A stretch of DNA of 64,000 bases from a virus. How positions within the stretch are numbered: the stretch's first letter is position 1; each line of letters opens with the position of its first letter. The position numbers and the translations under genes were made by a program. Below the pieces are notes generated by a model that saw only the letters and a list, made by a program, of their open reading frames with translations, had not been told where the DNA came from and did no database searches. The DNA is taken from IMG/VR virus record IMGVR_UViG_3300035034_003774; one strand, written 5' to 3'. Below are positions 1-18,794 of the stretch, one piece after another.

Positions 1-263
1 ATATTCTCGCATTCATGTTAATTGCAAAAGCACCACCAGAATAGGTGTTGTGTCTAATGATCTTGTTAAACTTTGGAACATCGTCCCAAGACTTTGGGTC
101 ATTAGTATCTTCTATTACTGCTCCGAATTCTAAAATCTGCAAGTCCTCAATAGGTCCATCTTTTCCTGGTACCCCTGTGGTCTCAATGTCAATCACTACA
201 TATTTCATATTGTTGTCTGTTTGTTTAACAACAAATTTATATCATATTATTGAATTGTGCAAA

Positions 264-291
264 TAAAAAAGGCCCGACTCACGTCAGGCCT
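264..291 (-). terminator. rho-independent terminator after GHKL ATPase gene
   Basis: hairpin GGCCCGAC-TCAC-GTCAGGCC (271-290); on minus strand followed by TTTTTTATTT. Confidence 0.5.
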
Positions 292-312
292 AATAAACTT
301 ATATGCTAAATA

Positions 313-1953
313 TTAGCAGAGCTTAGTAAATATTCTCGACATTCTTTCGAATCTCTGCTCGAACATTTCACTCATTTCCTCTTTTCTCATTTCATCAACT
401 TCTTCCTTAAGCATCTCTTCTTGAGATCGTCCAAGTGAAAATAGAAGCTTCATAAGATTGCTCTTCACTTCATCGTTTGATGGTAAAAACACATCATAGT
501 AGAACTCATGATCAGTGTTAAGCATTACAGAGATAACGCCATTACCTTGGTTGACAAATCTACATATGTCACCCTTGATTCCCTGGCTTTCAAATCCATA
601 GTCAAATATTTCTATAGACCTTCTCTTTACACCTTCTGGATACTCCCTCTTCTTTGTATCCTTTTTATCTTTTGGCGTATCATTAGTTTTCGACTTCTCT
701 ATTTTCTTTCTTTTTTGACGATCAGTCATAACAGCTTCTGGTATTATTTTTCGACCTCTGCTATTAATCTCTTTCTTTGTGCTATCACAAGCTCTCTTAA
801 CATCACCTTCTGGGTCTGTAGCATCACCTTTCTTATCCGCCTTATTGTTAGCCTCGATAGACCTTATAATAGGGCTAAAAAGAGCTTGCAACTTATCTCT
901 AAGACCTTGTGGGATTATGATTTCATTCTTTTGTAGAGAAACCTGGAAGAATTTATCCTGATCTCCTGATAAGAAAATCTCAGCTCTAAAACCATTCTTC
1001 TCATTATGCTTTGTAAACAAGTCGAGGCTCTTAGCTTTTATGATTTGTCTATTGTTTCTTAGAATATAGAAACCTTGATTGGCTATATTTCTATTGGTAA
1101 GTTTTGATCTTTCCTTAGAAATATTCTTTATGTAATAAACACGAATCTTAAGGTCAAGATCAATATCTTCTCCTTCGTGCTTAAACTTAAAGTTGTACAT
1201 CTGATTTGGAACTGATGCATTAAATAAAGAAGAATCTCCAGTACTTAACGCCATTGTATCAGCTGGCTCCAGTTTCTTGTCATTTATTGAAATGATCATT
1301 TCATCATCATCCTTAATGATGTATCTGTAAACTTCAGATAAATGCTTCCCAAGAATGTTGCAAAATTGATGGTGGCTGCTGTTGGTGATTCTATCAATCT
1401 TATCCATATAGATGATCGTTCCAGTTTCAGCTCCTTTAGTCATTTGCTTGAATAACTCCACCTCTTCGTCATTACAAATTGCAATAGGCGCCACTGATTT
1501 ACCAACCTCTCTAAACTTATCAAGATCATAAACACCAATATAGTATTCATCATCCTCATGTTTAGTGATTACTGTAAATCTTCTGGAGATTGAATTGGCT
1601 GCTAATTTAAGCCCACACCCAAAAAGACCAAGGTCTTGGTTTGTGATCTCCCTACCCGAAGAACCTGGGTGCAAAGCATCTACAAGTTCATTATACTGCA
1701 TACCACTTCCATCATCTGAAATAGATATGTACTTATAATCCTTGTCAATCTCTATTAACACTCTGGTTGCACCTACATCTGCATCCATTGAATTATCCAC
1801 AATATCAGCAATGGCCTCATAATTGGTGTAGCCAATGTTTCTTGTAGATTCGAAAAATTTTGGTTTTGGAGCTACCGAAACGTAGTCTCCCTCGTTGAAT
1901 CTGCTCGTAGCAGAATTTAATACAGCTCCTGCTGTCTTTCCATTATTACTCAT
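313..1953 (-). CDS. GHKL-family ATPase (HATPase_c_3 / MORC- or Hsp90-like ATP-binding fold) with lysine-rich C-terminal region
   Basis: N-box EAIADIVDNSMDA, G1 box ISISDDGSGM, G2 box GLFGCGLK in first 130 aa; long K/E-rich C-terminal tail. Confidence 0.6.
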   Translation of the reverse strand: MSNNGKTAGAVLNSATSRFNEGDYVSVAPKPKFFESTRNIGYTNYEAIADIVDNSMDADVGATRVLIEIDKDYKYISISDDGSGMQYNELVDALHPGSSGREITNQDLGLFGCGLKLAANSISRRFTVITKHEDDEYYIGVYDLDKFREVGKSVAPIAICNDEEVELFKQMTKGAETGTIIYMDKIDRITNSSHHQFCNILGKHLSEVYRYIIKDDDEMIISINDKKLEPADTMALSTGDSSLFNASVPNQMYNFKFKHEGEDIDLDLKIRVYYIKNISKERSKLTNRNIANQGFYILRNNRQIIKAKSLDLFTKHNEKNGFRAEIFLSGDQDKFFQVSLQKNEIIIPQGLRDKLQALFSPIIRSIEANNKADKKGDATDPEGDVKRACDSTKKEINSRGRKIIPEAVMTDRQKRKKIEKSKTNDTPKDKKDTKKREYPEGVKRRSIEIFDYGFESQGIKGDICRFVNQGNGVISVMLNTDHEFYYDVFLPSNDEVKSNLMKLLFSLGRSQEEMLKEEVDEMRKEEMSEMFEQRFERMSRIFTKLC

Positions 1954-1963
1954 AAAAAATTTA

Positions 1964-1986
1964 CTTTATGAATCGAAATTAATTAA
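1964..1986 (-). promoter_or_regulatory. conserved upstream motif B (core AATTAATTAATTCCAAT, plus-strand spelling) 20-40 nt upstream of GHKL ATPase start
   Basis: 17-nt core identical to 12470-12486; both flanked by CGA..TCG and both sit just upstream of minus-strand start codons. Confidence 0.4.
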
Positions 1987-2089
1987 TTCCAATTCGTGTT
2001 TAAAAAAATGTCCAAGTTAAAAAACTCAAACGATATTGCAAATATACTCCCTTTTTGGGAAACCTGCAAGAAAAAACTAATATTTCTTT

Positions 2090-2563
2090 TTATTTTTTGT
2101 AAAAAATATTTTTCTCTTTAATTTTTTTCGCAAAAAACATTGAGAGAAATGCTGCTATTACCATTCGTATAACTATACTTAATGGGTCTATTGTCTTGTC
2201 AAAGAACTCTACATCATCATTTAATAGCACTGTCAGACTTGTATTAACTAAACTAACTATAAGAAAAAATGCAACAAAAGGCATAGCGTAATCTTTAAAA
2301 GTTAGCTTTTTCTCATCACAAGATAAAACCTCATCTATATCTATATGAATTACATTTTTTGACTCCTTTTTACTTAAGTGATCATGGTCCTTAGCAGCTT
2401 CGTAACATTCAGGGTTATCGTTGCAATACCTCACGTTTTGCTCCATAATACCCTCTGGAAGTCCATGCTTATATCCAATATCTTTTGTATGTACAGATAT
2501 TTTATCGTCTGGCCTTCTGCTGCTACATATATGACAGGTCCATGTTAAATTACTAATTTCCAT
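2090..2563 (-). CDS. hypothetical membrane protein with N-terminal Cys/His cluster
   Basis: CHICSS...CNDNPEC motif then hydrophobic helix. Confidence 0.3.
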   Translation of the reverse strand: MEISNLTWTCHICSSRRPDDKISVHTKDIGYKHGLPEGIMEQNVRYCNDNPECYEAAKDHDHLSKKESKNVIHIDIDEVLSCDEKKLTFKDYAMPFVAFFLIVSLVNTSLTVLLNDDVEFFDKTIDPLSIVIRMVIAAFLSMFFAKKIKEKNIFYKK

Positions 2564-2855
2564 TTCTTTCCTTTACTTTTTTATATAAATCATGCTGTTG
2601 CTTTAAATACTTTGTAGTTTCAATTGTGTAATTTTTTCGTACACTTAGAAAGGGGAAGTCTTCATATAACACTTCTTCTCCCGAAACTATAAGGCGCACA
2701 TAACCCAGTTTACCAAGAGCTGTTTTATGAGTGTTTTCAGATTTGTAAACATCATATACATTCCCTTCATCATCATAAGCAATTTCTTCTTCATTAAAAA
2801 AGAATAGCTCTTTCTTATTAGCGACCTTACCTTCTATAAACTTTTCACTCATCAT
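2553..2855 (-). CDS. hypothetical protein
   Basis: ORF in co-directional block, start/stop overlap with neighbours. Confidence 0.3.
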   Translation of the reverse strand: MMSEKFIEGKVANKKELFFFNEEEIAYDDEGNVYDVYKSENTHKTALGKLGYVRLIVSGEEVLYEDFPFLSVRKNYTIETTKYLKQQHDLYKKVKERNGN

Positions 2856-3175
2856 TCCCCCTCTCTTTGAATTCCATCAATAGTGGTCAATCTGTGGTTG
2901 TAAAGAAGTTTCTCAGCAAGAATCTCAGTTTCCTGACCCCCAACCTGATGCTTTGATGTTTTAAAGATGTCGTTTTCATAACCAGGAGCATCTTCTGTTT
3001 GCTCAAGATAATAATAAAAAAGTCCTCTCCTGACTTTTACAAACCACCTTTCAAGACCATCTTCGTTTTTCTCTAATAGGATAATATACCTATCCATTGA
3101 TCTTAACTTAAATACAATGGCCAAGGCTACCGCAATGGTAATGCCTGTGATTATTAAATAAACTGCTAATTCCAT
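2852..3175 (-). CDS. hypothetical membrane-anchored protein
   Basis: N-terminal TM helix; ATGA overlap with upstream gene. Confidence 0.3.
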   Translation of the reverse strand: MELAVYLIITGITIAVALAIVFKLRSMDRYIILLEKNEDGLERWFVKVRRGLFYYYLEQTEDAPGYENDIFKTSKHQVGGQETEILAEKLLYNHRLTTIDGIQREGE

Positions 3176-3180
3176 AATTT

Positions 3181-5124
3181 TTATATTACAATTTTAAAAT
3201 CAATTTGTTTCTTCGTCATATTAACCTTCTGGACCTTTACAAGGACCTCATCTCCAAGTCGAAGAGTTCCTCCGTCATTGAAGTTGTTAATGCAGTAGTT
3301 CTCTTCATCAATAAATAGCTGACTATCAGAAAGAGTATCCTTTCCTACCATGCCTTCACATCCATTTTCGATAACTTCTACAAATACACCGAAGTCTTTA
3401 ACTCCAGATATAGTTCCTGGGAATACCTGACCAACCTTATCCTTCATATACTCACACTGCTTATACTTCACGGATTCTCTCTGAGCTTTCGCAGCTCTAT
3501 TCTCCATGTCACTACAATGATTACATTGGTCTCCAAGCTTAGATACGTTACCATCCTTTCCGTTTACATACTTCCATAGTAATCTATGAGCAATAACATC
3601 TGGGTAACGTCTAATAGGACTTGTAAAGTGACTGTAGTGCTTAAACCCAAGTCCATAGTGTCCAATAATTTGTGTAGAATAAACAGCCTTTGACATTGAC
3701 CTAATTGCAAGTATTGAGATCATTCCTTCTTCTCCTTTTCCTTGCGCCTCTTTCAATAGCTTGTTCAAAGAATCTTTAGTCTTTTCTATGTTATCAGAAA
3801 CTTTTAAGTTATATCCAAATACTGATGCAAGAGCGGCAAGCTCTTCAAGTCTTTCACGATCTGGCAAGTCATGAGTTCTGTATACAAATGGCTTACTTTT
3901 ACCATGAGCAAACTTAGCAACACTTCTATTAGCAAGAAGCATATACTCCTCGATTAATTGGTGAGCTTCATGTGACTCATGAAAAAATACATCTACTGGA
4001 GTTCCATCATCATCAAGTATGAACTGTGGCTCTCTTCTATTGAAGGATACCGCTCCATCTTTAAATCTCTTCTTTCTTATTTTTTTTGCAATTTCATTGA
4101 GAATGATTATACACTGCTCTTTTTTGGCATTTTCAATTTTATCAATCTTTGCATTTTCAGAGCCATCAATTATCTCCTGAGCCTCTTCATAAGTATATCT
4201 ATGATCAGAGTTGATCACAGTCTTCTTGAAATTGCTTTTTACAACCTTTCCCTCTGGAGTTATCTCAAAAATAACAGAGAAACAAAGCTTATCCTCATTA
4301 GGTCTTAATGAACATATTCCATTAGAAAGCCTCTCTGGAAGCATTGGTATGGTCCTGTCAACAAGATAAATTGATGTAGCTCTCTTAAAAGCTTCCTTAT
4401 CCAGTTCGCTTCCTGGCTTTATATAATGAGCAACATCTGCAATGTGAACACCTATTTCATAATTACCATTATCCAAATCTTTGAATGATATGGCATCATC
4501 GAAGTCTTTTGCAGAGTCTGGGTCAATAGTTACTGTAAGCGTATCACGCATATCCCTTCTACTTAGAATCTCCTTTTCTGTGATCTCCATAGGAATTTCC
4601 TCCGCCTCAACCTGCACATTCTGAGGAAAGTCATATTCAATATTGTTTTTGAACATGATATTCTCCATCTCGGCCTCATGAGACTCTGGTTTTCCAAATA
4701 CTTTGGTAACTATACCAACTGGACTGTTGTCATCTTCTTTCCAGTCTTTAATTCTTACGCCAACCATATCGCCATCTTTGGCTCCATTAAGATTTCTTGT
4801 TGGAACAAATATGTCGACACGCATCTTACCTCCAGCAGTTCTGACAAATGCAAAATTCTTTTTCTTGTTAATCTCTATCACTCCAGAAAAGTCTGTGCTT
4901 GCTCTTTCACGAATTCCTTTGACAACACCTTGTCGTCCATCTCCTTTTCCACTATTATCTGAAATAATGTCAATGTGAACTACATCTTTATGTAGGGCGT
5001 TTCCAAGGTTATCTTTGTGAATGAAAATATCATCCTTTGCACCTTTGGTTTCTGTCACTATTAAATAGGCGTGACCGTTTCTTAGTAAATCAATTGTACC
5101 TACGGCCTGTTTTTTATCTGCCAT
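3181..5124 (-). CDS. rnr: RNase R / RNase II family 3'-5' exoribonuclease
   Basis: N-terminal cold-shock-like region, RNB catalytic region (DFDDAISF, HYGLGF..YSHFTSPIRRYPD), C-terminal S1-like domain. Confidence 0.8.
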   Translation of the reverse strand: MADKKQAVGTIDLLRNGHAYLIVTETKGAKDDIFIHKDNLGNALHKDVVHIDIISDNSGKGDGRQGVVKGIRERASTDFSGVIEINKKKNFAFVRTAGGKMRVDIFVPTRNLNGAKDGDMVGVRIKDWKEDDNSPVGIVTKVFGKPESHEAEMENIMFKNNIEYDFPQNVQVEAEEIPMEITEKEILSRRDMRDTLTVTIDPDSAKDFDDAISFKDLDNGNYEIGVHIADVAHYIKPGSELDKEAFKRATSIYLVDRTIPMLPERLSNGICSLRPNEDKLCFSVIFEITPEGKVVKSNFKKTVINSDHRYTYEEAQEIIDGSENAKIDKIENAKKEQCIIILNEIAKKIRKKRFKDGAVSFNRREPQFILDDDGTPVDVFFHESHEAHQLIEEYMLLANRSVAKFAHGKSKPFVYRTHDLPDRERLEELAALASVFGYNLKVSDNIEKTKDSLNKLLKEAQGKGEEGMISILAIRSMSKAVYSTQIIGHYGLGFKHYSHFTSPIRRYPDVIAHRLLWKYVNGKDGNVSKLGDQCNHCSDMENRAAKAQRESVKYKQCEYMKDKVGQVFPGTISGVKDFGVFVEVIENGCEGMVGKDTLSDSQLFIDEENYCINNFNDGGTLRLGDEVLVKVQKVNMTKKQIDFKIVI

Positions 5125-5144
5125 GTTTATTTTAATCTTTTTTA

Positions 5145-5173
5145 GTTATACGCATATTGCGAAAAAATGTTTC
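5145..5173 (-). promoter_or_regulatory. sigma70-like promoter GAAACA-N17-TATAAC upstream of rnr
   Basis: minus-strand reading GAAACATTTTTTCGCAATATGCGTATAAC; member of a repeated promoter family in this window. Confidence 0.5.
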
Positions 5174-5562
5174 TAATTTGGGACTGTGGTGTAATCAATA
5201 CTTCCAATCTCCTTTCCATTGACGATCACTTTATCTTGGTGATCATCATTGACAATCCAGCCTCTATCTTTTAATGTTCTAATCTCTAAATCAAAGCAAG
5301 CAAGAGGCCTGTACTTAAGAATCTCACCATCGAACTTCTTGTCTATAGAGAGTTTTATTAATCCCTTTGTCATATCATCATACCAACCTGGATTTACTAA
5401 ATGAGTCCAGTAATAAACATTAGATAAATGCTGATGAGTCATTCCTTCGAAATTATTAAATCTCTGTCCAGTAAAACTCTGCCAAACAATAGGGTTTTTA
5501 ACACTATATTTTACTAATCTTTCTTTATGCATTTTCTTTCTCTTTTTCTGATTCAACAACAT
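5173..5562 (-). CDS. hypothetical protein
   Basis: ORF, K-rich N-terminus. Confidence 0.3.
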   Translation of the reverse strand: MLLNQKKRKKMHKERLVKYSVKNPIVWQSFTGQRFNNFEGMTHQHLSNVYYWTHLVNPGWYDDMTKGLIKLSIDKKFDGEILKYRPLACFDLEIRTLKDRGWIVNDDHQDKVIVNGKEIGSIDYTTVPN

Positions 5563-7099
5563 TTTCTGCTCTCATCTGAGGGAAAAATAAAACATCCTGA
5601 ATAGAGTCTTGATTAGTTAAAATCATCACAAGACGATCAATTCCGATTCCCAGGCCAGCTGTAGGTGGCATTCCGTACTCAAGGGCTCTTAAGAAATCTT
5701 CATCCAGAGCCATAGCTTCATCATCACCAGCTCCAGCAAGCTTAATTTGTTCCTCAAACCTTTCTCTTTGATCAATTGGGTCATTAAGCTCTGAATAAGC
5801 ATTAGCGATCTCCTTGCCATTGATGATGAGTTCAAATCGTTCAACAAGACCCTCTTCTGTTCTATGCTTCTTAGCCAATGGAGACATCTCAATTGGGTAG
5901 TCATATACAAATGTAGGTTCAATTAACTCAGGCTCCACAAACTCCCCGAAAATTTCATCAAGAAGCTTACCTCTACCCATTGTCTTATCAACATTAAGTC
6001 CTTTTTCTTTACACAAATCAAATAGACCCTGTTCTGTCAAGTTCTTAACATTAACTTGGGCGTATTTTTCAATAGCCTCAAAGAAAGTAATTCTTTCATA
6101 TCTATAAACCATACTGACATCACTTCCATCTTTAGCCTTAAAAGTTCCATGATTTAAAGCCATTGAAGCCACTGACTGAATCAATCTCTCACATACGTCC
6201 ATCATCCACATATAATCTTTATATGCAGCATACATTTCAACTTGAGTAAACTCTGGGTTATGGTATCTGCTCATTCCCTCATTTCTGAAGTCCTTAGCAA
6301 ATTCAAATACTCTTGGGAAACCACCAACTATCAACTTCTTTAGATAAAGCTCATTTGCAATCCTCAAATACAACTCCATATCTAGTTTGTTGTGGTGTGT
6401 CTTAAATGGCTTAGCTGATGCTCCACCATGAACTGATTGAAGTATTGGAGTCTCAACTTCAAGAAAACTACTTGATAAAAGGGAGTCTCTAATTGCTTGA
6501 ACAATCTTTGATCTCTTTATAAAAGTTTTTCTGACTTCTGGATTTACCACAAGATCAACGTACCTCTGACGGTATCTTGCCTCCTTCTTTGTAAAGGCGC
6601 CATGCTCATTTCCATCTTCATCTCTTTTTACCACTGGCAGTGGCTTAACAGACTTTGATAACAGAATCATTTTACTTGCCTTAAGAGTAACTTCTCCAGT
6701 CTTTGTCCTGAACATCTCACCCTCAAAACCAACGTGATCACCAAGATCAAGAAGTTTCTTAAATACCGTATTATACATTGCTTTATCCTCTTCGGGGCAA
6801 ATTTCATCACGCATAACATATACTTGAAGCTGGCCAAAATCATCTTGTATTTTACAAAAAGAAGCCTTACCCATTATGTTTCTCATCATCAATCTACCAG
6901 CAATAATGACTTTCATTGGTACATTTTGTCCAACCTTCTCAACTTTCTCGAAATGACGAATAACTTGAGTTGTTTTCAAATCTTTTTCACGACCCTCAAG
7001 GTACATTTTAAACTCCTCTGCTGGATATGGATTAATACCAAGTTCTCTTAGCTTGTTAAGAGACTCACGTCTAATTACTTCTTGTTCTGATAAACTCAT
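5525..7099 (-). CDS. lysS: lysyl-tRNA synthetase, class II
   Basis: full-length similarity to bacterial LysRS: N-terminal OB anticodon-binding region, class II motifs (FEVETP, HNPEFT, GLGIGIDRLVM). Confidence 0.9.
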   Translation of the reverse strand: MSLSEQEVIRRESLNKLRELGINPYPAEEFKMYLEGREKDLKTTQVIRHFEKVEKVGQNVPMKVIIAGRLMMRNIMGKASFCKIQDDFGQLQVYVMRDEICPEEDKAMYNTVFKKLLDLGDHVGFEGEMFRTKTGEVTLKASKMILLSKSVKPLPVVKRDEDGNEHGAFTKKEARYRQRYVDLVVNPEVRKTFIKRSKIVQAIRDSLLSSSFLEVETPILQSVHGGASAKPFKTHHNKLDMELYLRIANELYLKKLIVGGFPRVFEFAKDFRNEGMSRYHNPEFTQVEMYAAYKDYMWMMDVCERLIQSVASMALNHGTFKAKDGSDVSMVYRYERITFFEAIEKYAQVNVKNLTEQGLFDLCKEKGLNVDKTMGRGKLLDEIFGEFVEPELIEPTFVYDYPIEMSPLAKKHRTEEGLVERFELIINGKEIANAYSELNDPIDQRERFEEQIKLAGAGDDEAMALDEDFLRALEYGMPPTAGLGIGIDRLVMILTNQDSIQDVLFFPQMRAENVVESEKEKENA

Positions 7100-7329
7100 C
7101 TTTTCAATAATTTTTTTAGTCTACTATTTTCTGTTTGCAATTTTTCATTTTCATCTAACACCCTCTTCAACTGATCTTCAGCTGTATCAAGAGCTCGGTA
7201 AATAGCTTTGGTAGTTTGAAAGAGCTTTCTTACATCTGGGTGAAACTCAACTTGAGAGTTCATTCTAATGTCGGCCTTAATGACCTCTCCCTTTCTCTTC
7301 TTATTCTTTTTGTTAATCCTTTGTCTCAT
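7096..7329 (-). CDS. small coiled-coil protein
   Basis: 77 aa, charged heptad-like sequence. Confidence 0.3.
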   Translation of the reverse strand: MRQRINKKNKKRKGEVIKADIRMNSQVEFHPDVRKLFQTTKAIYRALDTAEDQLKRVLDENEKLQTENSRLKKLLKR

Positions 7330-8204
7330 TATTCTTTAAGTTCAATTTTCATCCCAGTCATAAACTCAAGGCTATTTTGGTTTGGAGTCAATCCAGAAAC
7401 CTGACCATCGCCAGTCTCTATGATCATCCAATCACCATCTTCCTTTTCTGCTACATCAATAGTAAAGAAATTACTATCTATCTGGAAGGCTATTCCATTA
7501 ACAACCGAATGAACAAAGTCATTTGGAGTGTTGAATTTACCTTTTTGATTTGAATTAGGGGTGCAGGATATTAAACGATTATCATAATAAAACAATCTCC
7601 ACTCGTTCACATTATCATCATCTCCCTTTTTGAGGTCAATAAACTCTTTGAATACGAGACCCTCACTAAATAAGATACCTCTGTGTTCAACAAAAGCCTC
7701 TACCCTCTTTAATAGCTCATCTCCAGCTATTCCAGCTGGCATTCTAAATAGATTGGGCACATTCTTTGCAGACTTAACAAAATCCTTCATCAAGAAATCT
7801 TTGTCTCCAAAAAAATCAGATATATTATTGAGTATGTCTGCATCCCAATCATTTTTGATAAATATAGCTTTTGAAGTGTAATCCTTGGTATAGTCATAAG
7901 ACTCTGGGAAGTGATGGCAATTTTTATATTGCTCTGGAGAATTGACCAAGCTATAACCCATTCCTTTTAATAGATTATACAGGTCTGTGTATTCAGACAT
8001 GTTCAACATCCAACTTCTTAGCACCAAAGATACATCACCCTCTGTCTGAGAAGGAATGTCTGTACTGAGCGAACCTCTAACAAACTTATCATGATCGAAA
8101 AGGTAACAATCAAATCCAAGTAGCTTTGCAGCCCTATGCTCTTCCATAAAGTCGCTATCGACCTTACTTCCTTCAAGGGGATTACATGGGAAAAGTATCT
8201 TCAT
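7329..8204 (-). CDS. putative ATP-grasp fold enzyme
   Basis: C-terminal FFTIDVAEKEDGDWMIIETGDGQVSGL resembles ATP-grasp C-terminal strand; weak overall. Confidence 0.35.
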   Translation of the reverse strand: MKILFPCNPLEGSKVDSDFMEEHRAAKLLGFDCYLFDHDKFVRGSLSTDIPSQTEGDVSLVLRSWMLNMSEYTDLYNLLKGMGYSLVNSPEQYKNCHHFPESYDYTKDYTSKAIFIKNDWDADILNNISDFFGDKDFLMKDFVKSAKNVPNLFRMPAGIAGDELLKRVEAFVEHRGILFSEGLVFKEFIDLKKGDDDNVNEWRLFYYDNRLISCTPNSNQKGKFNTPNDFVHSVVNGIAFQIDSNFFTIDVAEKEDGDWMIIETGDGQVSGLTPNQNSLEFMTGMKIELKE

Positions 8205-8222
8205 AATTTCTATTTATCTTAT

Positions 8223-8251
8223 GTTATACGCAAATTTACGAAAATTGTTTC
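8223..8251 (-). promoter_or_regulatory. sigma70-like promoter GAAACA-N17-TATAAC
   Basis: minus strand GAAACAATTTTCGTAAATTTGCGTATAAC, 20 nt before ATG at 8204. Confidence 0.5.
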
Positions 8252-8277
8252 AAAAAAAAAACAGGTCCGAAGACCTG
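8252..8277 (-). terminator. rho-independent terminator after MORN-repeat gene
   Basis: hairpin CAGGTC-CGAA-GACCTG (8262-8277) followed on minus strand by 10 T. Confidence 0.6.
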
Positions 8278-8302
8278 TTTATTAAAATATTTAGTTTTTT
8301 CC

Positions 8303-8857
8303 TTATTGATGGCGTGCTACAAGACCCTTATCATCGTTCCATGTCCAGCCTTCTATTAGCTCACCTCTTTTATATTCTTCAGACACAAGAAGTCGCCCTT
8401 CATCATCGTATTTAAAGCATTCACCATGCTTATCACCCCTCTTGTACTCTCTTTGAATTAGCAGATCACCATCTTCGTTGTATTGAGTCCACGTTCCATG
8501 TTTTCCTCCATTCTTAAATTCATACTCAGAAATAACAGAGCCATCCTCATTGTAAACAAACCAGTTACCATGCTTTTTTCCATTGTTATAAAAGCTGTAG
8601 CTAAGTTCTTGTCCATTCTGATAATATCTCACCCAGTCTCCAGACTTTCGTAAATATTCATCGTATGTACCACTTAGGCTTTTCTCGCCATCTTCATAAT
8701 ATTCGTTATACTCATAAGTATCACCATCAATTCCAGGAATAGCAATGAGCTCGTGTTTTGTGTTGCCATTTTCGTAAGTAGCTTTCTCAATGATGTCGTT
8801 AGAAAAAGCAAAAGCAGAAGTAAGACAAACAAATAATGTTATAATAAATTTTCTCAT
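8303..8857 (-). CDS. secreted MORN-repeat (MORN_2-like) protein
   Basis: signal peptide MRKFIITLFVCLTSAFAFS; repeated G-KHG-W-Y-EDG units. Confidence 0.55.
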   Translation of the reverse strand: MRKFIITLFVCLTSAFAFSNDIIEKATYENGNTKHELIAIPGIDGDTYEYNEYYEDGEKSLSGTYDEYLRKSGDWVRYYQNGQELSYSFYNNGKKHGNWFVYNEDGSVISEYEFKNGGKHGTWTQYNEDGDLLIQREYKRGDKHGECFKYDDEGRLLVSEEYKRGELIEGWTWNDDKGLVARHQ

Positions 8858-8992
8858 AATCTCTTATTTTTAGTTTTGTAATATTAACTCAATGTTAAGA
8901 GTTCTATACATAAATATACTCAAAATTAAGTAATTATTAAATAAAAAACAAGAAAACCAATGAATTATTTAAAATTTAGGCAAAAAACAATG

Positions 8993-9898
8993 TTAAGAAA
9001 TTGTTTCTAACTCACCTGGATGTACTGGAGTTCTCTTTAGTTTTTCGAAGAATTCTCCTCTAAATTTTCCTTTTGAAGCAAGATCACTTATCTTGAGATA
9101 CATATCTCCGTTTTGCAGACTTCCTTTAGGGTTAAAAGCCGCATACTTTCTTCTTCTTAATACTTCTGGAACTTCTTGCTTGAAGTGTACCTCTTTTATC
9201 GTATCACCCTCAAGACCTGAATGCTCTGTCATAAGAGTGTGGTCCAGCTTTACTGATTCATTCAAGTCTGGAGCTCCTCCAGTATGAGAGTCCATTGTTG
9301 GAAAATAAACCCAATCAGAATCAAAAGGTTCATATTCAAACATGATTGGTTGAGAGTCCATTTTTTTGTCTCCATCAAATATACAACACACAAAGCTCCA
9401 ACCTTTATAGTGATTTTTGAAGAAATCAAGTAGCTCATCAGAAATGTCTGGGCCATAAACTCCTAACCTATCTATAAGAGCATCAATATCATTAGTTGAT
9501 ATTACCTTGTATATGCCAAGACTAAACTCTTCAATACTCTTACTTTTAAAACCTCTTTCTATACCAAGACTTCTGGTTAAATTTACCTTTGTTCTCCTTT
9601 CTATTTCATCCATAAAGTCATTATACTCTGTTGTATCATAAAACCAATCCTTACTTAGTTTGCCAGGTATTGGAAGAATCATTGAGTTTACTTTACCAGA
9701 TTTATTCTCTGCCTTGTTTTTGTAAGAAATTAAATGCCTACCATTGTCAAGAGGCATTGATAAAATCTTTGTTTTTGTTAATTCTGCTTTTGCTGATACT
9801 ATACACATATTTTCTAATTTTAGATTAATGATTATAAAGGTCTTCACTATATAGCTTGCTACTACTGTATCCAAGCTTCTTAATTTGACCACATTCAA
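8993..9898 (-). CDS. hypothetical protein
   Basis: 301-aa ORF. Confidence 0.3.
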   Translation of the reverse strand: MNVVKLRSLDTVVASYIVKTFIIINLKLENMCIVSAKAELTKTKILSMPLDNGRHLISYKNKAENKSGKVNSMILPIPGKLSKDWFYDTTEYNDFMDEIERRTKVNLTRSLGIERGFKSKSIEEFSLGIYKVISTNDIDALIDRLGVYGPDISDELLDFFKNHYKGWSFVCCIFDGDKKMDSQPIMFEYEPFDSDWVYFPTMDSHTGGAPDLNESVKLDHTLMTEHSGLEGDTIKEVHFKQEVPEVLRRRKYAAFNPKGSLQNGDMYLKISDLASKGKFRGEFFEKLKRTPVHPGELETIS

Positions 9899-10178
9899 GG
9901 GCTATTTTAGCACCTTCTTTTCTTTTTACGAATCGGTTTTTACTTGTCAAAAACCCATCAACTCTTGTTCTGTTAAAATGAATCCTCATCTTATCATGAT
10001 CTCCATTGTTTTGATAATCAGGATAAAATGCTGCCGATGCCTGACTAATACAGTGAGCATGGCCGAGGCCAGAGAATACTATGCCATATTCAATATTTCT
10101 TGGCTTGTGGGCCACATTTACTTCTTTCTCTGGGAACCAGATTGAAGCGCACAATATTCTTTCCTTGGTTAAATCCAT
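9825..10178 (-). CDS. hypothetical protein
   Basis: ORF overlapping the 3' end of upstream gene in another frame. Confidence 0.3.
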   Translation of the reverse strand: MDLTKERILCASIWFPEKEVNVAHKPRNIEYGIVFSGLGHAHCISQASAAFYPDYQNNGDHDKMRIHFNRTRVDGFLTSKNRFVKRKEGAKIALECGQIKKLGYSSSKLYSEDLYNH

Positions 10179-10184
10179 TATTAC

Positions 10185-10610
10185 TTAAACTATAATTTCT
10201 CCTTCCTTTTTGAACTTATCTCTTAATCTTATTTTCTTTCTTAGAACCTCGATCTCTTTATTAATTCTCTCTCTCTCATCAAGCTTTAGCTGTAGATTGA
10301 TGTCGAGATTCTTGATGCCTATTATGAAATTGACTTCCATTTTAATGAATTTGCTTTTAAACTCATTATCAGTATCCATCAAGTTTTGATGAGTATTCTT
10401 ATAGTGACATATTGTTGAGTGATCTACGTCCAATATCTTACCTATTCTATATGGTCCTTTGTCAGTGTTCCTTTCAAGCACCAAAGATACCATTCTCTTT
10501 GCATCTACATACTCAGGCTTTCTGGACTTCTTTAAGACATCTTCTTTGCTAAATCCAAGAACCTCCTCCGCAATATTAAAAACTATATCAGCATCTCTAT
10601 CCATTATCAA
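10185..10610 (-). CDS. DnaA domain-IV-like helix-turn-helix protein
   Basis: KEDVLKKSRKPEYVDAKRMVSLVLERNTDKGPYRIGKILDVDHSTICHYKN matches the Bac_DnaA_C signature (SRKRE..AR..MYL.R..T......IG..FGGRDHTTVIHA). Confidence 0.5.
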   Translation of the reverse strand: MIMDRDADIVFNIAEEVLGFSKEDVLKKSRKPEYVDAKRMVSLVLERNTDKGPYRIGKILDVDHSTICHYKNTHQNLMDTDNEFKSKFIKMEVNFIIGIKNLDINLQLKLDERERINKEIEVLRKKIRLRDKFKKEGEIIV

Positions 10611-10858
10611 AATCCTATTACTTTAATGTAACCTTTATTGTTATAATCTCCCACCTTGTATTGAAACCCGTGTCTATCAAGAACAGCTCTAGTAAGTTTA
10701 TGCATCTCAGCTGAATTACCAGTTATTATGTCATGAGGACACGGTGTAAGAAATATATGATTCTCAACAATCCTATCTATGTCTGCATGTTTCTCTCCAT
10801 GCAGGTCCAGAGTTGTTTTTTCCGATTGTCTTACCTTATTCTTTTTCCTTCTAGCCAT
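10607..10858 (-). CDS. Smr (small MutS-related) domain protein
   Basis: TLDLHGEKHADI motif characteristic of Smr nickase domain. Confidence 0.5.
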   Translation of the reverse strand: MARRKKNKVRQSEKTTLDLHGEKHADIDRIVENHIFLTPCPHDIITGNSAEMHKLTRAVLDRHGFQYKVGDYNNKGYIKVIGF

Positions 10859-10861
10859 CTC

Positions 10862-11368
10862 CTACTCCGTGAATATGTGAGATACTTTATGCTTAATCTC
10901 TATAATTGCAGTGATTACTTGTTTCATTAAAAAATCTTCATCAACGCAAAACATTTTTGCGGCCTCATTGACAGGTAATGCATCAATTGCAACCGCATTA
11001 TAAAATACCCTGGTCTTAGAAGGTAGTTCCCTGATCATCTCAATCACAACTTCTGTTTGAATATCTTTGTTATGAAGATCAATATTTTCCTTTTTATTGG
11101 ATATAATCCCTGGCCTTACAATGATTTCGTTACAACAGTAATTAACCGCTATAGACCTTGACCACTCTTCAAAATTAGAAGGTATATCACCAGACTTAAG
11201 CTTATTAAATATAGTTATGAATATATTTTCCGTAAACTCCTTAGCTTCTTCCTCGCTTTCGGCGTATCGCATAGATATAGCATGAATCCTTCCATATTTA
11301 GATTTAAACACCTCCTTTTGATAAACTTTATCTCCAGAAGCAGCTTTTTCTAATGTAGAACGATTCAT
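10862..11368 (-). CDS. ECF-type sigma-70 family factor (regions 2 and 4)
   Basis: region-2-like KEVFKSKYGRIHAISMRYAESEEEAKEFTENIFITIFNKL and region-4-like LPSKTRVFYNAVAIDALPVNEAAKMFCVDEDFLMKQVITA. Confidence 0.45.
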   Translation of the reverse strand: MNRSTLEKAASGDKVYQKEVFKSKYGRIHAISMRYAESEEEAKEFTENIFITIFNKLKSGDIPSNFEEWSRSIAVNYCCNEIIVRPGIISNKKENIDLHNKDIQTEVVIEMIRELPSKTRVFYNAVAIDALPVNEAAKMFCVDEDFLMKQVITAIIEIKHKVSHIFTE

Positions 11369-11589
11369 TACTTATCCATTTTTTTTCTACCCTTAATTCT
11401 TGATCTAATAATCTCTGTTACAAGAAATATAACTACACCCCATGCAAAAAAGAAGAAGTGAAGAGCGAAAATTAATAAAATGACAAGCAGATGAGACATC
11501 CACGTCTTTTTATATCTAACGTAGTATACTGCAGTGATTATTACTGCTATTAGCGATACTATCCAAATTGGTAATCCTGATACAACCAT
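11368..11589 (-). CDS. small membrane protein
   Basis: two predicted TM helices. Confidence 0.35.
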   Translation of the reverse strand: MVVSGLPIWIVSLIAVIITAVYYVRYKKTWMSHLLVILLIFALHFFFFAWGVVIFLVTEIIRSRIKGRKKMDK

Positions 11590-11612
11590 GTTTTAAATTT
11601 TTTGATTCTTTA

Positions 11613-11641
11613 ATTATACGAAATATAAAAGTTTTTGTTTC
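11613..11641 (-). promoter_or_regulatory. sigma70-like promoter GAAACA-N17-TATAAT
   Basis: minus strand GAAACAAAAACTTTTATATTTCGTATAAT, 23 nt before ATG at 11589. Confidence 0.5.
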
Positions 11642-11686
11642 AAAAAAACTGATTTTATAGATCAGCTTTCAATGTGATTTTTATTC

Positions 11687-12436
11687 TTACCCAGCCATTA
11701 CGTCATCACCGCCTGGATTTGCCGAAGGAGAACCTTTAATATGGCCAGGGCTAATAGATTCAGATTTAGAAGGGCTTGAATCTATTCTTCCTTTGCTGAT
11801 TTTTTCCAATAGAACTCCAAGCTTTTCCTGCCTTTGCATTAATTCCTTAAGTTCCTTTAGAAATTCTTCCTCTTCTGATGTAGCATCACGAAACCCTTCA
11901 TCATAATCTTTGTTATTAGACTTCTCTTCAGCAGATTGATTAATCTTCTTAATCCTTCCATTAATTATAGAGAAAACTTCTTTGAACTCTTTTACAATTT
12001 CTTCTTCTTCATCCTCATTCTCTTCGAGCATGTTTATCTCATTAATATCAACTGGCTGGCTGAAATCGTATTCATTTACAGTTTTCTTGAAGTTCTTCAT
12101 AACGTTCATTCTGACTACGTTATTTTCAGCCCAAACATCATTAGAAGCAGCTTCAAGAACTTTTTCTTTAAGACCATCTACAGATGAGATGTCAAACCCA
12201 GAGTGCATCATTATAGCCCCTAAAACTTGAATGCCTACATTTCTATCCTCTTCATTTGTATCTGCCTTTGAGATCATGTTATTAATATCAACGATCTTAT
12301 CTTTTAAAACTTCTCTTGGTATGGGTTGTATTTTTTTGTCATCACCATACTCCTTAACTCCACAGAAGCTGTAAATATTTTCTTTCCACTCAAGAGCAGG
12401 GTCACCCCCGTATATTTGTTCATTCCACCAACCCAT
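11687..12436 (-). CDS. hypothetical acidic protein
   Basis: 249 aa, E/D-rich centre. Confidence 0.35.
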   Translation of the reverse strand: MGWWNEQIYGGDPALEWKENIYSFCGVKEYGDDKKIQPIPREVLKDKIVDINNMISKADTNEEDRNVGIQVLGAIMMHSGFDISSVDGLKEKVLEAASNDVWAENNVVRMNVMKNFKKTVNEYDFSQPVDINEINMLEENEDEEEEIVKEFKEVFSIINGRIKKINQSAEEKSNNKDYDEGFRDATSEEEEFLKELKELMQRQEKLGVLLEKISKGRIDSSPSKSESISPGHIKGSPSANPGGDDVMAG

Positions 12437-12462
12437 TATTATATGTTTTTAAATATTCATTG

Positions 12463-12488
12463 CGAATTTAATTAATTAATTCCAATCG
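12463..12488 (-). promoter_or_regulatory. conserved upstream motif B (AATTAATTAATTCCAAT) plus ATTCGCAAT element upstream of 11687-12436 gene
   Basis: identical 17-nt core to 1967-1983; adjacent ATTGCGAAT (12459-12467) also seen at 5153-5161 and 52903-52911. Confidence 0.4.
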
Positions 12489-12500
12489 AGCAAAATAAAG

Positions 12501-13700
12501 TTAGAATTTATACCTATCCGATCTGGTTCTATTTCTAAATTTTGGCTTTTTTTTCATTAACTCATCGTCAAAATCATTGGCCACAAACCACCAGACAAGT
12601 CCAGTAGTTATGATAACAATAATTACCATAGACCATATAATGCTCGAAACTGGAGGGTCTACCGTTAAGTAATTGAATTCTGAAAACTCTTTCCTTACAA
12701 ATTTCTTATCCAGACTTCCATACAAGAATTCGCTTATATCTTCAAGATTCAACTTATCCTGATTTAACACAAACTTCCTAGCTTCTACTTTTACAATAGA
12801 ATGTTCAGCCCAAGTAAATGGATGGACCCAGTTAACATTATTATCTTTGTCTACTCCTATTGCGAGCACAAATTCATTTTTATTTCCACCTTTCCAATAA
12901 GCTTCCTGAAGTATCCCCGATCTCTTGGGCTTATTCTTGAATATCAATATAAATGCCTTCAACTGTTTTTTAGGACCAAGCTTTGCATTTAGTATTTGCA
13001 TATTTTTCTCAGCTACTTCTTGAGTCTTATCTCCATCTCCCAGGATGCTAATCTGCTTAAAACCTTTATATATCTTGGGATAATCATAAAGGCCATGCTT
13101 CTCTTTTTGCTCTTCAGTTACATCTTCAAAATCAAACACGGTGTGCGCAGCTTGCACTCTATTCTCATAAGTATGCTCAGTTACTATGCACTCAATCAAA
13201 TCTCTTTTCTTAGTCCAAAAGGAGCTGTATATGCCATTATCATAAGTGTGGTAATTTGAGTGCTTACCAGTCTTTTTTTCATTTCCCCACTTACTCTTAA
13301 TTCTATTATACTCACTTTTGCTAATTCTTACAGAGCTTCCATGTTTATTTATTATTCTCCAGCGTGGAGGATGATTTTCAATGTAAGAGCAGTCATAAGT
13401 TCTGGTGCAATATTTAGTGCCTCCATTTGAGTTTGTTCCACATGGATAGCTTTCTGTACAAGTTCTATGTATGTATTCATCATATGCGCCTTCATACTGA
13501 ACCTTATAAGCAACGTCTCCCCAATACTCCGTATCAGACGTCATTGATGTTTCTATGATCAGCTTAGCTATCAGAATAGTTAAAACAGAAACGCCAAACA
13601 ACATTAAATACTCCCACCAAGCTATTTTACGCTTATCAAAAAAGATAAACATAACAATAGTAGCTAACACTGGTATCAACATTAAAAACCAAATATTCAT
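12501..13700 (-). CDS. membrane protein with Cys-rich ectodomain
   Basis: N-terminal 2 TM, C-terminal TM, cysteine-rich middle. Confidence 0.35.
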   Translation of the reverse strand: MNIWFLMLIPVLATIVMFIFFDKRKIAWWEYLMLFGVSVLTILIAKLIIETSMTSDTEYWGDVAYKVQYEGAYDEYIHRTCTESYPCGTNSNGGTKYCTRTYDCSYIENHPPRWRIINKHGSSVRISKSEYNRIKSKWGNEKKTGKHSNYHTYDNGIYSSFWTKKRDLIECIVTEHTYENRVQAAHTVFDFEDVTEEQKEKHGLYDYPKIYKGFKQISILGDGDKTQEVAEKNMQILNAKLGPKKQLKAFILIFKNKPKRSGILQEAYWKGGNKNEFVLAIGVDKDNNVNWVHPFTWAEHSIVKVEARKFVLNQDKLNLEDISEFLYGSLDKKFVRKEFSEFNYLTVDPPVSSIIWSMVIIVIITTGLVWWFVANDFDDELMKKKPKFRNRTRSDRYKF

Positions 13701-13707
13701 AATATTA

Positions 13708-13992
13708 CTATTTTATTTTCTTCTTAAGATCAGAAATCTCTTTATCACTGAATTTACTTTGATGCTCAATTAATATTCTCATCTTGATTTCTTTTTCAGA
13801 ATAATCACCCCCAATCCATCCAGCTGAATTAATAATAAGAGAATTATTGGCTGCATCCACTTCTTTTTCCGTCATAGGAGTAGTCAATCTATTGATTATT
13901 CTATCCTTTTCTTCCTTTCGTTTTTTTTCCGCTTCAGCTCTTGACTCTGCAATCTTTCTTTTTATGTAATTGATTATTTTCATCATAAGCAC
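13708..13992 (-). CDS. hypothetical protein
   Basis: 94-aa ORF, possible GTG start or ATG at 13986. Confidence 0.3.
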   Translation of the reverse strand: MLMMKIINYIKRKIAESRAEAEKKRKEEKDRIINRLTTPMTEKEVDAANNSLIINSAGWIGGDYSEKEIKMRILIEHQSKFSDKEISDLKKKIK

Positions 13993-13995
13993 ATT

Positions 13996-14020
13996 AAAAA
14001 AGGGGCATAAAGCCCCTTTT
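13996..14020 (-). terminator. rho-independent terminator
   Basis: GGGGC-ATAAA-GCCCC hairpin flanked by A-run and TTTT (symmetrical); on minus strand followed by TTTTTT. Confidence 0.55.
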
Positions 14021-14608: not shown

Positions 14609-14637
14609 GTTATACGCAAAAATAAATAAAATGTTTC
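14609..14637 (-). promoter_or_regulatory. sigma70-like promoter GAAACA-N17-TATAAC
   Basis: minus strand GAAACATTTTATTTATTTTTGCGTATAAC, 27 nt before ATG at 14581. Confidence 0.5.
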
Positions 14638-15023
14638 TATTTAACTATTTTAACATGAAATAAATCTTTATCAAAGTCAAAATCTGGAACAGACTTTTCA
14701 AATGCTGACTTAAGACTTGATATAGGGTCCTTATATAATAACCGAACCCCACCCATAGGAAGTCCAAAGGGAGCGCCTTTGTAATTGGTGTATAGATTAT
14801 GTGAATTCTTCTTGCCCTTTTTCACTTCAAGGCCTGTAAGTTCAATAGCCTCTTTCTTTGATATTGAGTAATCTGAATCCGTATTGAATGACTTTATAGA
14901 CTCCATGAACAAAGCGCATCCACTTAAGTCTTTTTTCTTATCGTATTTAGCAATTGCTTTATCAAGCTCTGCTTGTGTGTAGGTAGTTAAGAACACTCCT
15001 ACTTTTGTATTAATTTTTTTCAT
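14637..15023 (-). CDS. hypothetical protein
   Basis: 128-aa ORF. Confidence 0.3.
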   Translation of the reverse strand: MKKINTKVGVFLTTYTQAELDKAIAKYDKKKDLSGCALFMESIKSFNTDSDYSISKKEAIELTGLEVKKGKKNSHNLYTNYKGAPFGLPMGGVRLLYKDPISSLKSAFEKSVPDFDFDKDLFHVKIVK

Positions 15024-15546: not shown

Positions 15547-16047
15547 ATGGTAGAGACAGAGTGTTTTTGTGTTAATGAAAAGTGTAGAGAATACGGCAAC
15601 ACAGTTGTGGTAAAGGATTATGACTACACAGAAGGTATGCAAAACTTTTGCTCAAGCTGTGGAGTAAGGTTAAAGGCGAGGCCTAATAAAAGTAATGGCC
15701 TAAACATAGAAGATGTTAAGAAAATACTAAATAATATAAATTTCGCAGAATACTCATGCATAGACATGGGCTGGGAATTCCAGATTAAAATTGAAGGTGA
15801 TCTATATCTAATTAGAACATCCTTTAAAAGAAAGGATATTAATAGCGGGAAACTCGGCAAAGGTTGGGGCCGTTGGCACACAACTCCAGTTAAAGGAGCA
15901 AGTGAAACATCTATAGTAATGACTGCGTGGGTTTGTGTTAAAATGATAATCGAACACGAGTTGCTTGAAGGGTTTGAATACAAAGGCAAAAAAGTATTCA
16001 ATCCTCACAAGACTATTGATCAACTCGTATATCCAAATAAATTATGA
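15547..16047 (+). CDS. zinc-ribbon containing protein
   Basis: CFCVNEKC...CSSCG N-terminal Cys4. Confidence 0.35.
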   Translation: MVETECFCVNEKCREYGNTVVVKDYDYTEGMQNFCSSCGVRLKARPNKSNGLNIEDVKKILNNINFAEYSCIDMGWEFQIKIEGDLYLIRTSFKRKDINSGKLGKGWGRWHTTPVKGASETSIVMTAWVCVKMIIEHELLEGFEYKGKKVFNPHKTIDQLVYPNKL

Positions 16048-16442
16048 GTGAATCTGTAGTGTACAAACTAAGTAAAGAGGCGATCTCTATTGTTGATGAT
16101 AAAATTGACATGATGGACCAGTGGCTCATGCAAATGAGTGACGAGGAACTAAGTAAGTGGCATATAATATGCGATAAAGTACATGATCAAAGAACTGAAG
16201 AAGAAATTGACATTATTGATAAATATGCTATTGTTCTTTACTACAGAGAGCTTGATGTTGAGGAGTTGTCAATAAACTCAGAGTTAATAGCCGACATAAC
16301 CTCCAGATTTTGTGTAAATATTATAGTTGCATCCCTAAGAAGAAGAGGTATCGTCAAGACTGAGGAACCACTTTTACTGTATAAATCAAGAAAGATGGAG
16401 CTTACTGAAAAAGGAAAAAAAATTAACGAAGAAAATAAATAA
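16044..16442 (+). CDS. hypothetical protein
   Basis: ATGA overlap with upstream gene. Confidence 0.35.
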   Translation: MSESVVYKLSKEAISIVDDKIDMMDQWLMQMSDEELSKWHIICDKVHDQRTEEEIDIIDKYAIVLYYRELDVEELSINSELIADITSRFCVNIIVASLRRRGIVKTEEPLLLYKSRKMELTEKGKKINEENK

Positions 16443-16443
16443 T

Positions 16444-16472
16444 GAAACATTTTCATTTTATTTTCGTATAAT
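16444..16472 (+). promoter_or_regulatory. plus-strand promoter GAAACA-N17-TATAAT
   Basis: TGAAACATTTTCATTTTATTTTCGTATAAT, 21 nt before ATG at 16493. Confidence 0.5.
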
Positions 16473-16492
16473 AACAGCTAAATTTATTTAAC

Positions 16493-16792
16493 ATGACAAA
16501 TAAAGAATCAAAAATATCAAACAGAGCAAAGATGCAAACACTAATCAGTCAAAACACTTCGATGGCTGCTGGAGACTTTCATGCTGATCAGCTTGATGTT
16601 AATTCCCTTGTCATGGACATTAAAAAGCATTTCAACATTTCTACCAAAGACAATAGAAGTGATGGGGTGGTAATTAGTAAATTAGTTAAATCAAGCACCA
16701 GGAGACTGCGTGGGCGAACCAGTGCAAAAGAATTTAATCAAAAAAAGTTTTTAAAACTATTTTTTGAATCATTTGAAATAGAAAGAGTATGA
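16493..16792 (+). CDS. hypothetical protein
   Basis: 99-aa ORF. Confidence 0.3.
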   Translation: MTNKESKISNRAKMQTLISQNTSMAAGDFHADQLDVNSLVMDIKKHFNISTKDNRSDGVVISKLVKSSTRRLRGRTSAKEFNQKKFLKLFFESFEIERV

Positions 16793-17436: not shown

Positions 17437-17499
17437 TATTTGGTTTTATATTGAAACTTTTATAATTTTGTAACGTATTTATATACACAAGCATTAATT

Positions 17500-17794: not shown

Positions 17795-17835
17795 TTTAAA
17801 GTTATTAACATGTTAATAACTTTTTAAAATTTGAT

Positions 17836-17864
17836 TAAACATTTTTCATTTCTCTACGTATCAC
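17836..17864 (+). promoter_or_regulatory. possible promoter TAAACA-N17-TATCAC upstream of sigma factor gene
   Basis: keeps conserved CG before the -10 but the -10 is weak. Confidence 0.3.
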
Positions 17865-18781: not shown

Positions 18782-18794
18782 TAAAATTACCCAT

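Follow-up and report, generated by a model that had tools for sequence, protein, structure and literature searches.

Two short sequence motifs had been proposed as shared regulatory elements in the IMG/VR virus record IMGVR_UViG_3300035034_003774, of which we analyzed a stretch of 64,000 nt (hereafter, the window): a 17-mer upstream of the minus-strand genes for a GHKL ATPase and an acidic 249-aa protein, and a nonamer upstream of the 249-aa gene and a nicotinamidase-like (pncA-like) gene. Our analysis suggests that these motifs probably bring together three unrelated things, namely the core of a sigma-70-family promoter (the nonamer), a hairpin in an mRNA leader (copy 1 of the 17-mer, at the ATPase gene), and a coincidental repeat in a promoter spacer (copy 2, at the 249-aa gene). 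We establish here the architecture of the promoters and its positional conservation, as well as the two-hairpin structure of the leader and its gene-specific conservation.

Occurrence of the two motifs

The 17-mer (plus strand, AATTAATTAATTCCAAT) occurs exactly at 1977-1993, 23 nt upstream of the ATG at 1953, and at 12470-12486, 33 nt upstream of the ATG at 12436. This confirms its reported location 20-45 nt upstream of two minus-strand genes and the coordinates of the second copy; the first had been placed 10 nt away, at 1967-1983. The CGA and TCG flanks described for both copies are present at copy 1 (CGA-17mer-TCG), while copy 2 reads CGAATTT-17mer-CGAG. The nonamer (ATTCGCAAT on the minus strand, ATTGCGAAT on the plus strand) has only two exact sites, at the 249-aa and pncA-like genes. 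At a third site claimed for it, in the promoter spacer of "rnr", the sequence carries one mismatch, and we regard this occurrence as chance. That gene encodes RNase R (RNB domain), not ribonucleotide reductase.

12459-12467, minus strand: nonamer ATTCGCAAT, promoter positions -9 to -1
52903-52911, minus strand: nonamer ATTCGCAAT, promoter positions -9 to -1
5156-5164, minus strand: inexact nonamer TTTCGCAAT, one mismatch, in the spacer of the extracytoplasmic function (ECF)-like promoter of the RNase R gene

We compared the motif counts with those in shuffled sequences. The window contains two dispersed exact repeats of at least 17 nt, compared with 0.95 ± 0.86 in dinucleotide shuffles, 40 of 60 of which had at least one. 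The second such repeat, an exact 18-mer (AAAGTTTTTCTGACTTCT) at 6522-6539 and 22773-22790 in two unrelated coding regions, serves as a chance-level comparator for the 17-mer. When only the intergenic DNA (3.9 kb) was shuffled, 7 of 300 shuffles contained a shared word of at least 17 nt (P about 0.02), a post hoc value from shuffles that ignore local A/T-rich tracts. The exact nonamer was observed twice against 0.54 expected, and two occurrences were reached in 9 of 100 shuffles; with up to one mismatch, 12 were observed against 18.9 expected. By count alone, neither motif is clearly above chance. Since the counts are indecisive, the comparative data decide.

The nonamer is part of a probable Bacteroidota-type promoter

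The Bacteroidetes promoter consensus consists of -33 TTTG and -7 TANNTTTG with G at -5, and the T at -6 was reported to be nearly invariant in F. johnsoniae (PMC6847099). A regular expression for this architecture, TTG-N18-21-TAnnTT[TC]G, gave 20 matches, seven of them within the intergenic 6.7% of the window. Within intergenic DNA, the box TAnnTTTG has a density of 2.82 per kb on the sense strand and 0.47 per kb on the antisense strand, compared with 0.65 per kb in coding DNA; it is thus enriched 4.3-fold on the sense strand and not at all on the antisense strand. The longer form TAnnTTyGCAAT occurs three times, always intergenic and in sense orientation, as TATATTTGCAAT at the GHKL ATPase gene and as TAAATTCGCAAT at both the 249-aa and the pncA-like gene. 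Because each of these members has a TTG 20 nt upstream, the nonamer corresponds to positions -9 to -1 of a promoter and comprises the 3' half of the -7 box TAnnTT[T/C]G followed by four unconserved bases.

2039-2069, minus strand: GHKL ATPase promoter; TTG (2069-2067), N20, TATATTTG (2046-2039), then CAAT; predicted start about 2034
12463-12493, minus strand: promoter of the 249-aa gene; TTG, N20, TAAATTCG; predicted start about 12458
52907-52937, minus strand: promoter of the pncA-like gene; TTG, N20, TAAATTCG; its upstream portion extends into the end of the dnaJ-like gene; predicted start about 52902

The -7 box of the ATPase promoter, TATATTTG, fully matches TAnnTTTG (T-12, A-11, T-8, T-7, T-6, G-5). 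The form TAAATTCG at the other two promoters matches five of the six defining positions and has C at -6. The predicted starts lie about 5 nt beyond the G of each box. These putative promoters would drive the 249-aa and nicotinamidase-like genes, with the ATPase gene apparently served by the same architecture.

We then examined the orthologous genes of related phages. Upstream of the 249-aa orthologues, a -7 box is found 22-33 nt before the ATG in four other lineages: as TACATTCG in L004 (TTG-N21-TACATTCGCTT) and L007 (TTG-N19-TACATTCGCTT), as TAGATTTG in L001-3, and as TAAATTTG in L339. The pncA orthologues of L057 and L058 carry TTTG-N20-TAAATTTG. Thus the TTG spacing is exactly 20 nt at the three window promoters and in L057 and L058, and 19-21 nt in L004 and L007. 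What is conserved among the orthologues is the -7 box; the C at -6 is one variant of it, and the CAAT tail is unconserved. The proposal that the motifs mark a promoter class or an operator therefore holds for the nonamer in its first half, as a second promoter class, and fails in its second, since an ordinary -7 box part followed by unconserved bases makes no separate operator.

These promoters resemble the sigma-A promoters of Bacteroides and Flavobacterium (PMC6847099), in which -33 TTTG and -7 TAnnTTTG lie 19-21 nt apart (here exactly 20). They also share the A/T-rich spacer, a location 20-90 nt upstream of start codons, strand-specific intergenic enrichment, and a position conserved in orthologues. 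They differ in that two of the three window promoters have C in place of the near-invariant T at -6, and in that the CAAT following the box, common to the three, is specific to this genome. Such promoters are presumably read by the host sigma-A or by the 293-aa sigma-70-like factor of the phage.

The C at -6 raises the question of whether TA(A/C)ATTCGC forms a subclass of its own, belonging to a distinct temporal class and read by the phage 293-aa factor rather than by host sigma-A. The C recurs upstream of the 249-aa orthologues of L004 and L007 (TACATTCGC) in addition to the two window promoters, it occupies a position where host promoters almost always have T (PMC6847099), and a full sigma-70-family factor (regions 1.2-4) is encoded by this phage and all its relatives. 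However, the same genes carry the canonical TTTG elsewhere (the 249-aa orthologues of L001 and L339, the pncA orthologues of L057 and L058), only four such intergenic boxes exist in the roughly 150 kb surveyed, and matches to TAnnTTCG are mostly parts of CGTATAA boxes or of the leader hairpin H2 described below. We therefore consider a separate subclass unlikely, and an ordinary variant of the sigma-70-family promoter remains our preferred explanation of the nonamer.

The dominant, ECF-like promoter class

The dominant promoter motif in the intergenic regions is a different one, GAAACA/GTAACA-N16-CGTATAA(C/T), which is probably the "first" motif of the earlier note. Its CGTATAA part has 11 occurrences in intergenic sense DNA (2.58 per kb, versus 0.03 per kb in coding DNA) and is often preceded by a G+C-rich, terminator-like hairpin with a T run. 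The sigma-A-like class would stand beside this ECF-like class.

5145-5178, 8223-8256, 11609-11643, 14609-14642, 16443-16492 and 22449-22483, sense strand of each gene: GAAACA/GTAACA-N16-CGTATAA sites
26880-26998, 45729-45763, 56759-56788, 58344-58381 and 63735-64000, sense strand of each gene: remaining sites of this class

Promoters of ECF sigma factors follow the pattern GGAAC-N16-17-CGT. The GAAACA/GTAACA-N16-CGTATAA class resembles this pattern, and the phage encodes an ECF-like sigma that may read it; the 17-mer and the nonamer fall outside the class, with the inexact nonamer at 5156-5164 merely lying inside one such spacer. Judged by the ECF consensus, the CGTATAA promoters thus appear to be a better match for this sigma than the two motifs for which it had been suggested as a reader. 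The other suggested readers, two DnaA-domain-IV-like helix-turn-helix (HTH) proteins, showed no link to either motif.

Between lineages, genes have swapped promoter class. The ATPase leader of L013 (9880-9925) follows an ECF-like promoter (GTAAC-N16-CGTATA), and the pncA orthologue of L059 (about 1420-1500) has ECF-like TTGAAAC-N16-CGTATAAC instead of the sigma-A-like form.

A conserved two-hairpin leader upstream of the ATPase gene

Copy 1 of the 17-mer lies between the promoter and the start codon of a gene whose product matches Pfam HATPase_c_3, the N-terminal region of MORC2/3/4 in PDB and, in PADLOC, MzaB (5e-19). The ATPase thus resembles MORC proteins and MzaB, which is a component of a defence system.

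313-1953, minus strand: MORC-like (MzaB-like) GHKL ATPase gene, 546 aa, bearing the leader
1970-1995, minus strand: hairpin H2, GAAUUGGAAUU-AAUU-AAUUUCGAUUC, 11 bp with a 4-nt loop
1977-1993, minus strand: 17-mer copy 1 (ATTGGAATTAATTAATT on this strand), covering part of the H2 5' arm, the loop and part of the 3' arm
2010-2031, minus strand: hairpin H1, GUUUGAGUU-UUUU-AACUUGGAC, 9 bp
1968-2033, minus strand: whole two-hairpin leader RNA, roughly 66 nt, the sole covariance-model match in the window

We compared this region among nine lineages (the window, L010, L011, L013, L021, L032, L045, L046, and L047). The stretch from promoter to ATG is conserved in all nine, whose ATPase proteins are only 55-82% identical; leader identity to the window's is 70-88%, versus 68-81% for the coding sequence. 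RNAalifold predicted two hairpins from the alignment, and in the window both fold better than shuffled sequences (H2, -9.0 kcal/mol, z = -4.45; H1, -7.0 kcal/mol, z = -3.9). Standard pairs fill 98.9% of the pair cells, compared with 24-54% when the partners are slid, which for nine sequences is modest support. Compensatory double changes occur at two pairs (5 cells): the closing pair of H1 is U-A in five lineages and C-G in three, and pair 9 of H2 is G-C in seven and A-U in two. Four further pairs vary on one side only with pairing kept, and five invariant G·U pairs are possible on the coding (sense) strand only. As MAFFT misaligns H2 of L013, which has a 3-nt loop, pair counts were taken from a model-based alignment (A3), which leans towards structure.

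The leader accompanies the ATPase gene through differing gene neighbourhoods, always directly upstream of the orthologue, and its position relative to the transcript is regular. H1 begins 7-12 nt past the -7 box, about 4-9 nt from the predicted 5' end. In all nine lineages, H2 is separated from the AUG by 15-19 nt (usually 15-17), which include an A/U-rich tract. A covariance model (R1) of the leader gave a single match in the window (82.4 bits, E = 6e-14), followed by H2 in antisense at 18 bits; the nine lineages score 59-90 bits. As a specificity control, R1 was run on the 200 loci listed (1.55 Mb) for the looser pattern ACTTRGACA-N8-22-GARTTGGA in genome and viral collections, and none matched. 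R1 likewise found no leader upstream of ATPase homologues at 34% identity or less. A scan for the hairpin pattern returned only chance matches in coding DNA from IMG/VR, and 27 loci from metagenomes, of which five were true, all upstream of ATPase orthologues. No Rfam family reached its gathering score in the window, the best E within 1800-2300 being 0.096 for an unrelated family. Among public contigs, the only one found to be identical to the window across the ATPase leader (136/136 nt) was L027 (Ga0136558_1049253, 1172 nt), which probably represents the same phage population.

Taken as an RNA element, the leader may act post-transcriptionally. H1 could be a 5'-end stabiliser that guards the ATPase mRNA from 5'-end-dependent decay, and H2 a determinant of translation initiation or a protein-binding operator; a protein-binding site is conceivable, since not only the pairing but also the sequence of the stems is conserved. 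On balance, we lean slightly towards the leader being a genuine new cis-regulatory RNA family.

Similar arrangements are known from 5'-terminal stem-loops that stabilise mRNAs, as in the E. coli ompA 5' untranslated region (UTR), and from the operator hairpins of phage translational repressors. Like these, the leader belongs to one gene and is conserved with it, with H1 a few nucleotides from the predicted 5' end and H2 at a fixed distance from the AUG. Unlike them, its stems are rich in G·U and A-U pairs and conserved in sequence as well as pairing, it has no Rfam family, its function is putative, and it offers no Shine-Dalgarno sequence to sequester, as expected in a Bacteroidota host. RNA thermometers of the FourU and ROSE types are also weak, A-U- and G·U-rich hairpins in 5' UTRs. 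Here, however, H2 ends at about -16, so the hairpins exclude the start codon and ribosome-binding sequence. We rejected a thermometer of a chaperone gene, since the ATPase is MORC-like rather than Hsp90-like and its AUG is unsequestered. Intrinsic terminators were also rejected: the stems, rich in A-U and G·U pairs (-7 and -9 kcal/mol), are located inside the leader, downstream of the promoter. A U-rich tract follows H1, and none follows H2.

H1 and H2 might instead be palindromic DNA operators of the ATPase gene, bound by dimeric regulators. Their strongly conserved stem sequences, with 14 of 20 pairs invariant, and their location just downstream of the promoter, where repressors frequently bind, would fit such sites. 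What makes this improbable is the asymmetry between the strands. All five invariant mismatches of the palindromes are compatible with G·U pairing on the coding strand only, and the one-sided changes convert U·G into U-A or C-G, and both G-C and A-U into G·U. Furthermore, the element was kept in L013, where the promoter class was swapped, and its distance is nearly constant to the AUG (15-19 nt from H2) but varies from 7 to 12 nt to the -7 box. These features argue for hairpins formed in RNA.

The second copy of the 17-mer is probably a coincidental repeat

Copy 2 is neither conserved nor structured. It occupies the spacer of the 249-aa promoter, about -28 to -12, a position inconsistent with that of copy 1 in the leader (about +42 to +58).

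11687-12436, minus strand: gene of the acidic 249-aa protein, no Pfam family
12470-12486, minus strand: 17-mer copy 2, about -28 to -12 in the spacer of the 249-aa promoter; unconserved and unstructured

The copy 2 region folds no better than shuffled sequences (z = +0.17), and the covariance model had no sense-strand match at this site; together, these results ruled out a second copy of the hairpin. In blastn searches against the relatives, the copy 2 region gave no match, and the intergenic region at site 1 matched more than nine loci. Neither (AATT)3 nor ATTGG was found upstream of the 249-aa orthologues of L001-3, L004, L007, and L339. The contigs L002 and L010 belong to one phage, since they overlap by 914 nt at 100% identity; in this phage, the identical 17-mer precedes the ATPase gene but is missing from the region upstream of the 249-aa gene. 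In lineages where the H2 sequence has drifted to ATTGGAGTTTATTAACT, no matching change is seen upstream of the 249-aa orthologues. Copy 2 would thus be a low-complexity (AATT)3 plus ATTGG in an A/T-rich spacer that shares no function with copy 1 and arose by coincidence in this lineage or, at most, through a small transfer of sequence.

Several observations weigh against this overall interpretation. A 17-mer shared within intergenic DNA is uncommon, as the post hoc P of about 0.02 indicates. When small indels are allowed, the similarity of copies 1 and 2 extends to CGA...TCG on both sides, so the copies may be truly akin in this phage, through duplication or function. The nearest relative available for site 2 has 64% protein identity. 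For the leader, covariation amounts to two double-change pairs only; given that 14 of 20 pairs are invariant, the sequence itself is selected, which recognition by a protein, at the RNA or the DNA level, would explain as well as a purely structural role. Finally, the C at -6 deviates from the near-invariant position of F. johnsoniae (PMC6847099), and the two promoters bearing it could be weak or used by another sigma factor.

The shared 17-mer would suit a DNA operator of one phage regulator, for example a DnaA-domain-IV-like HTH protein, that acts by occluding the spacer at the 249-aa promoter and as a roadblock at the ATPase gene. Such a site would account for the exact match of 17 nt between two intergenic regions, equally oriented relative to their genes, and for the result of the intergenic shuffles; moreover, the (AATT)3 core is a perfect palindrome, and copy 1 sits within a 26-bp imperfect one. 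The two copies nevertheless differ in their position relative to the promoters, none of the four other lineages has copy 2, not even the phage with an identical copy 1, and the drift of copy 1 to ATTGGAGTTTATTAACT is unmatched at the 249-aa orthologues. Every imperfection of the palindrome is a G·T on the sense strand, with changes that keep G-C or G·U, which is an RNA signature, and chance alone would be expected to yield a 17-mer repeat in a window of this size. A common operator is thus very unlikely. The 17-mer as a shared promoter or operator element, as originally proposed, is contradicted by the differing positions, by the evolution of copy 1 as an RNA hairpin, and by the absence of copy 2 at the orthologues. 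Even less credible is that the leader is a new phage-specific regulatory RNA bound by a phage or host protein that controls the ATPase and, in this particular phage, also recognises copy 2 and thereby couples both genes.

The separation of the three elements removes a false regulon, as the 17-mer provides no link between the ATPase and 249-aa genes. It also leaves two usable promoter classes for annotating these uncultured, probably Bacteroidota-infecting large phages, sigma-A-like TTG-N20-TAnnTTyG and ECF-like GAAACA-N16-CGTATAA, between which orthologous genes can move. An ordinary reading holds for both the nonamer and the 17-mer, and only the leader RNA is modestly new; it is about 66 nt long, lies outside Rfam, is tied to a MORC/MzaB-like GHKL ATPase gene and is conserved at least as well as coding sequence. 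It offers a handle on how and when the ATPase is expressed during infection, and is a modest addition, as many gene-specific leader structures are already known.

Gene content, relatives and probable host

The window has a G+C content of 35% and tightly packed genes, nearly all on the minus strand, with a single plus-strand block at 15547-21036. Its genes include those for RNase R, a class II aminoacyl-tRNA synthetase, a DnaJ-like protein, a PNKP/Hen1 RNA-repair pair, and the nicotinamidase-like protein, and its encoded regulators comprise the sigma-70-family factor, the ECF-like sigma, and the two DnaA-domain-IV-like HTH proteins.

3181-5124: RNase R gene, RNB domain
5525-7099: class II aminoacyl-tRNA synthetase gene
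17900-18781: sigma-70-like factor, 293 aa

The RNA-repair genes, at 54038-58093 and 44453-45724, encode a PNKP-like kinase/ligase (906 aa), a Hen1 methyltransferase (434 aa), and an RlaP-family nucleotidyltransferase. The 372-aa product of 21268-22386 (minus strand) carries a C-terminal sorting domain for type IX secretion (Por_Secre_tail, 27.6 bits; cut-off, 27), which, together with the promoter type, hints at a host among the Bacteroidota.

A megablast of positions 1-14000 against a phage collection gave no match, so no cultured phage in that collection is alike at the DNA level. In tblastn, the ATPase matched at 24-26% identity only and the 249-aa protein not at all; single-protein scans of IMG/VR returned no relatives, and look-ups of two window proteins by exact sequence returned nothing. 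The relatives were found via a protein database. Syntenic relatives are present in metagenomes on contigs of up to 108 kb, some of them binned as "Nanoarchaeota". Three related-phage contigs, L007 (ERZ1292623, a 99-kb contig), P0016, and P0093, are filed in NCBI within a "Nanoarchaeota archaeon" metagenome-assembled genome, an assignment that is probably a binning error.

We also noted a permuted (two-piece) transfer-messenger RNA (tmRNA), called by ARAGORN at 17465-17831 (plus strand) with the tag peptide GNDLTKSLALEAVLNSERAETTAVAPVAMAA, inside an apparent 463-nt gap at 17437-17899. Rfam tmRNA_permuted scores 37.9 bits on this region (E = 3.8e-6), under its gathering score of 47. The region is 72-78% identical across about 430-465 nt in the relatives L001-3 and L004/L006, and a sigma-A-like promoter, TTG-N20-TAATTTTG, lies by it at 17440-17470. 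Finally, coding DNA of the window contains in-frame repeats: tandem 54-nt units at 20640-20930 (plus strand) in the coding region of a Lys/Thr/Ala-rich protein, a 30-nt duplication at 45908-45967 (93% identity), and a 19-nt duplication at 25870-25908.

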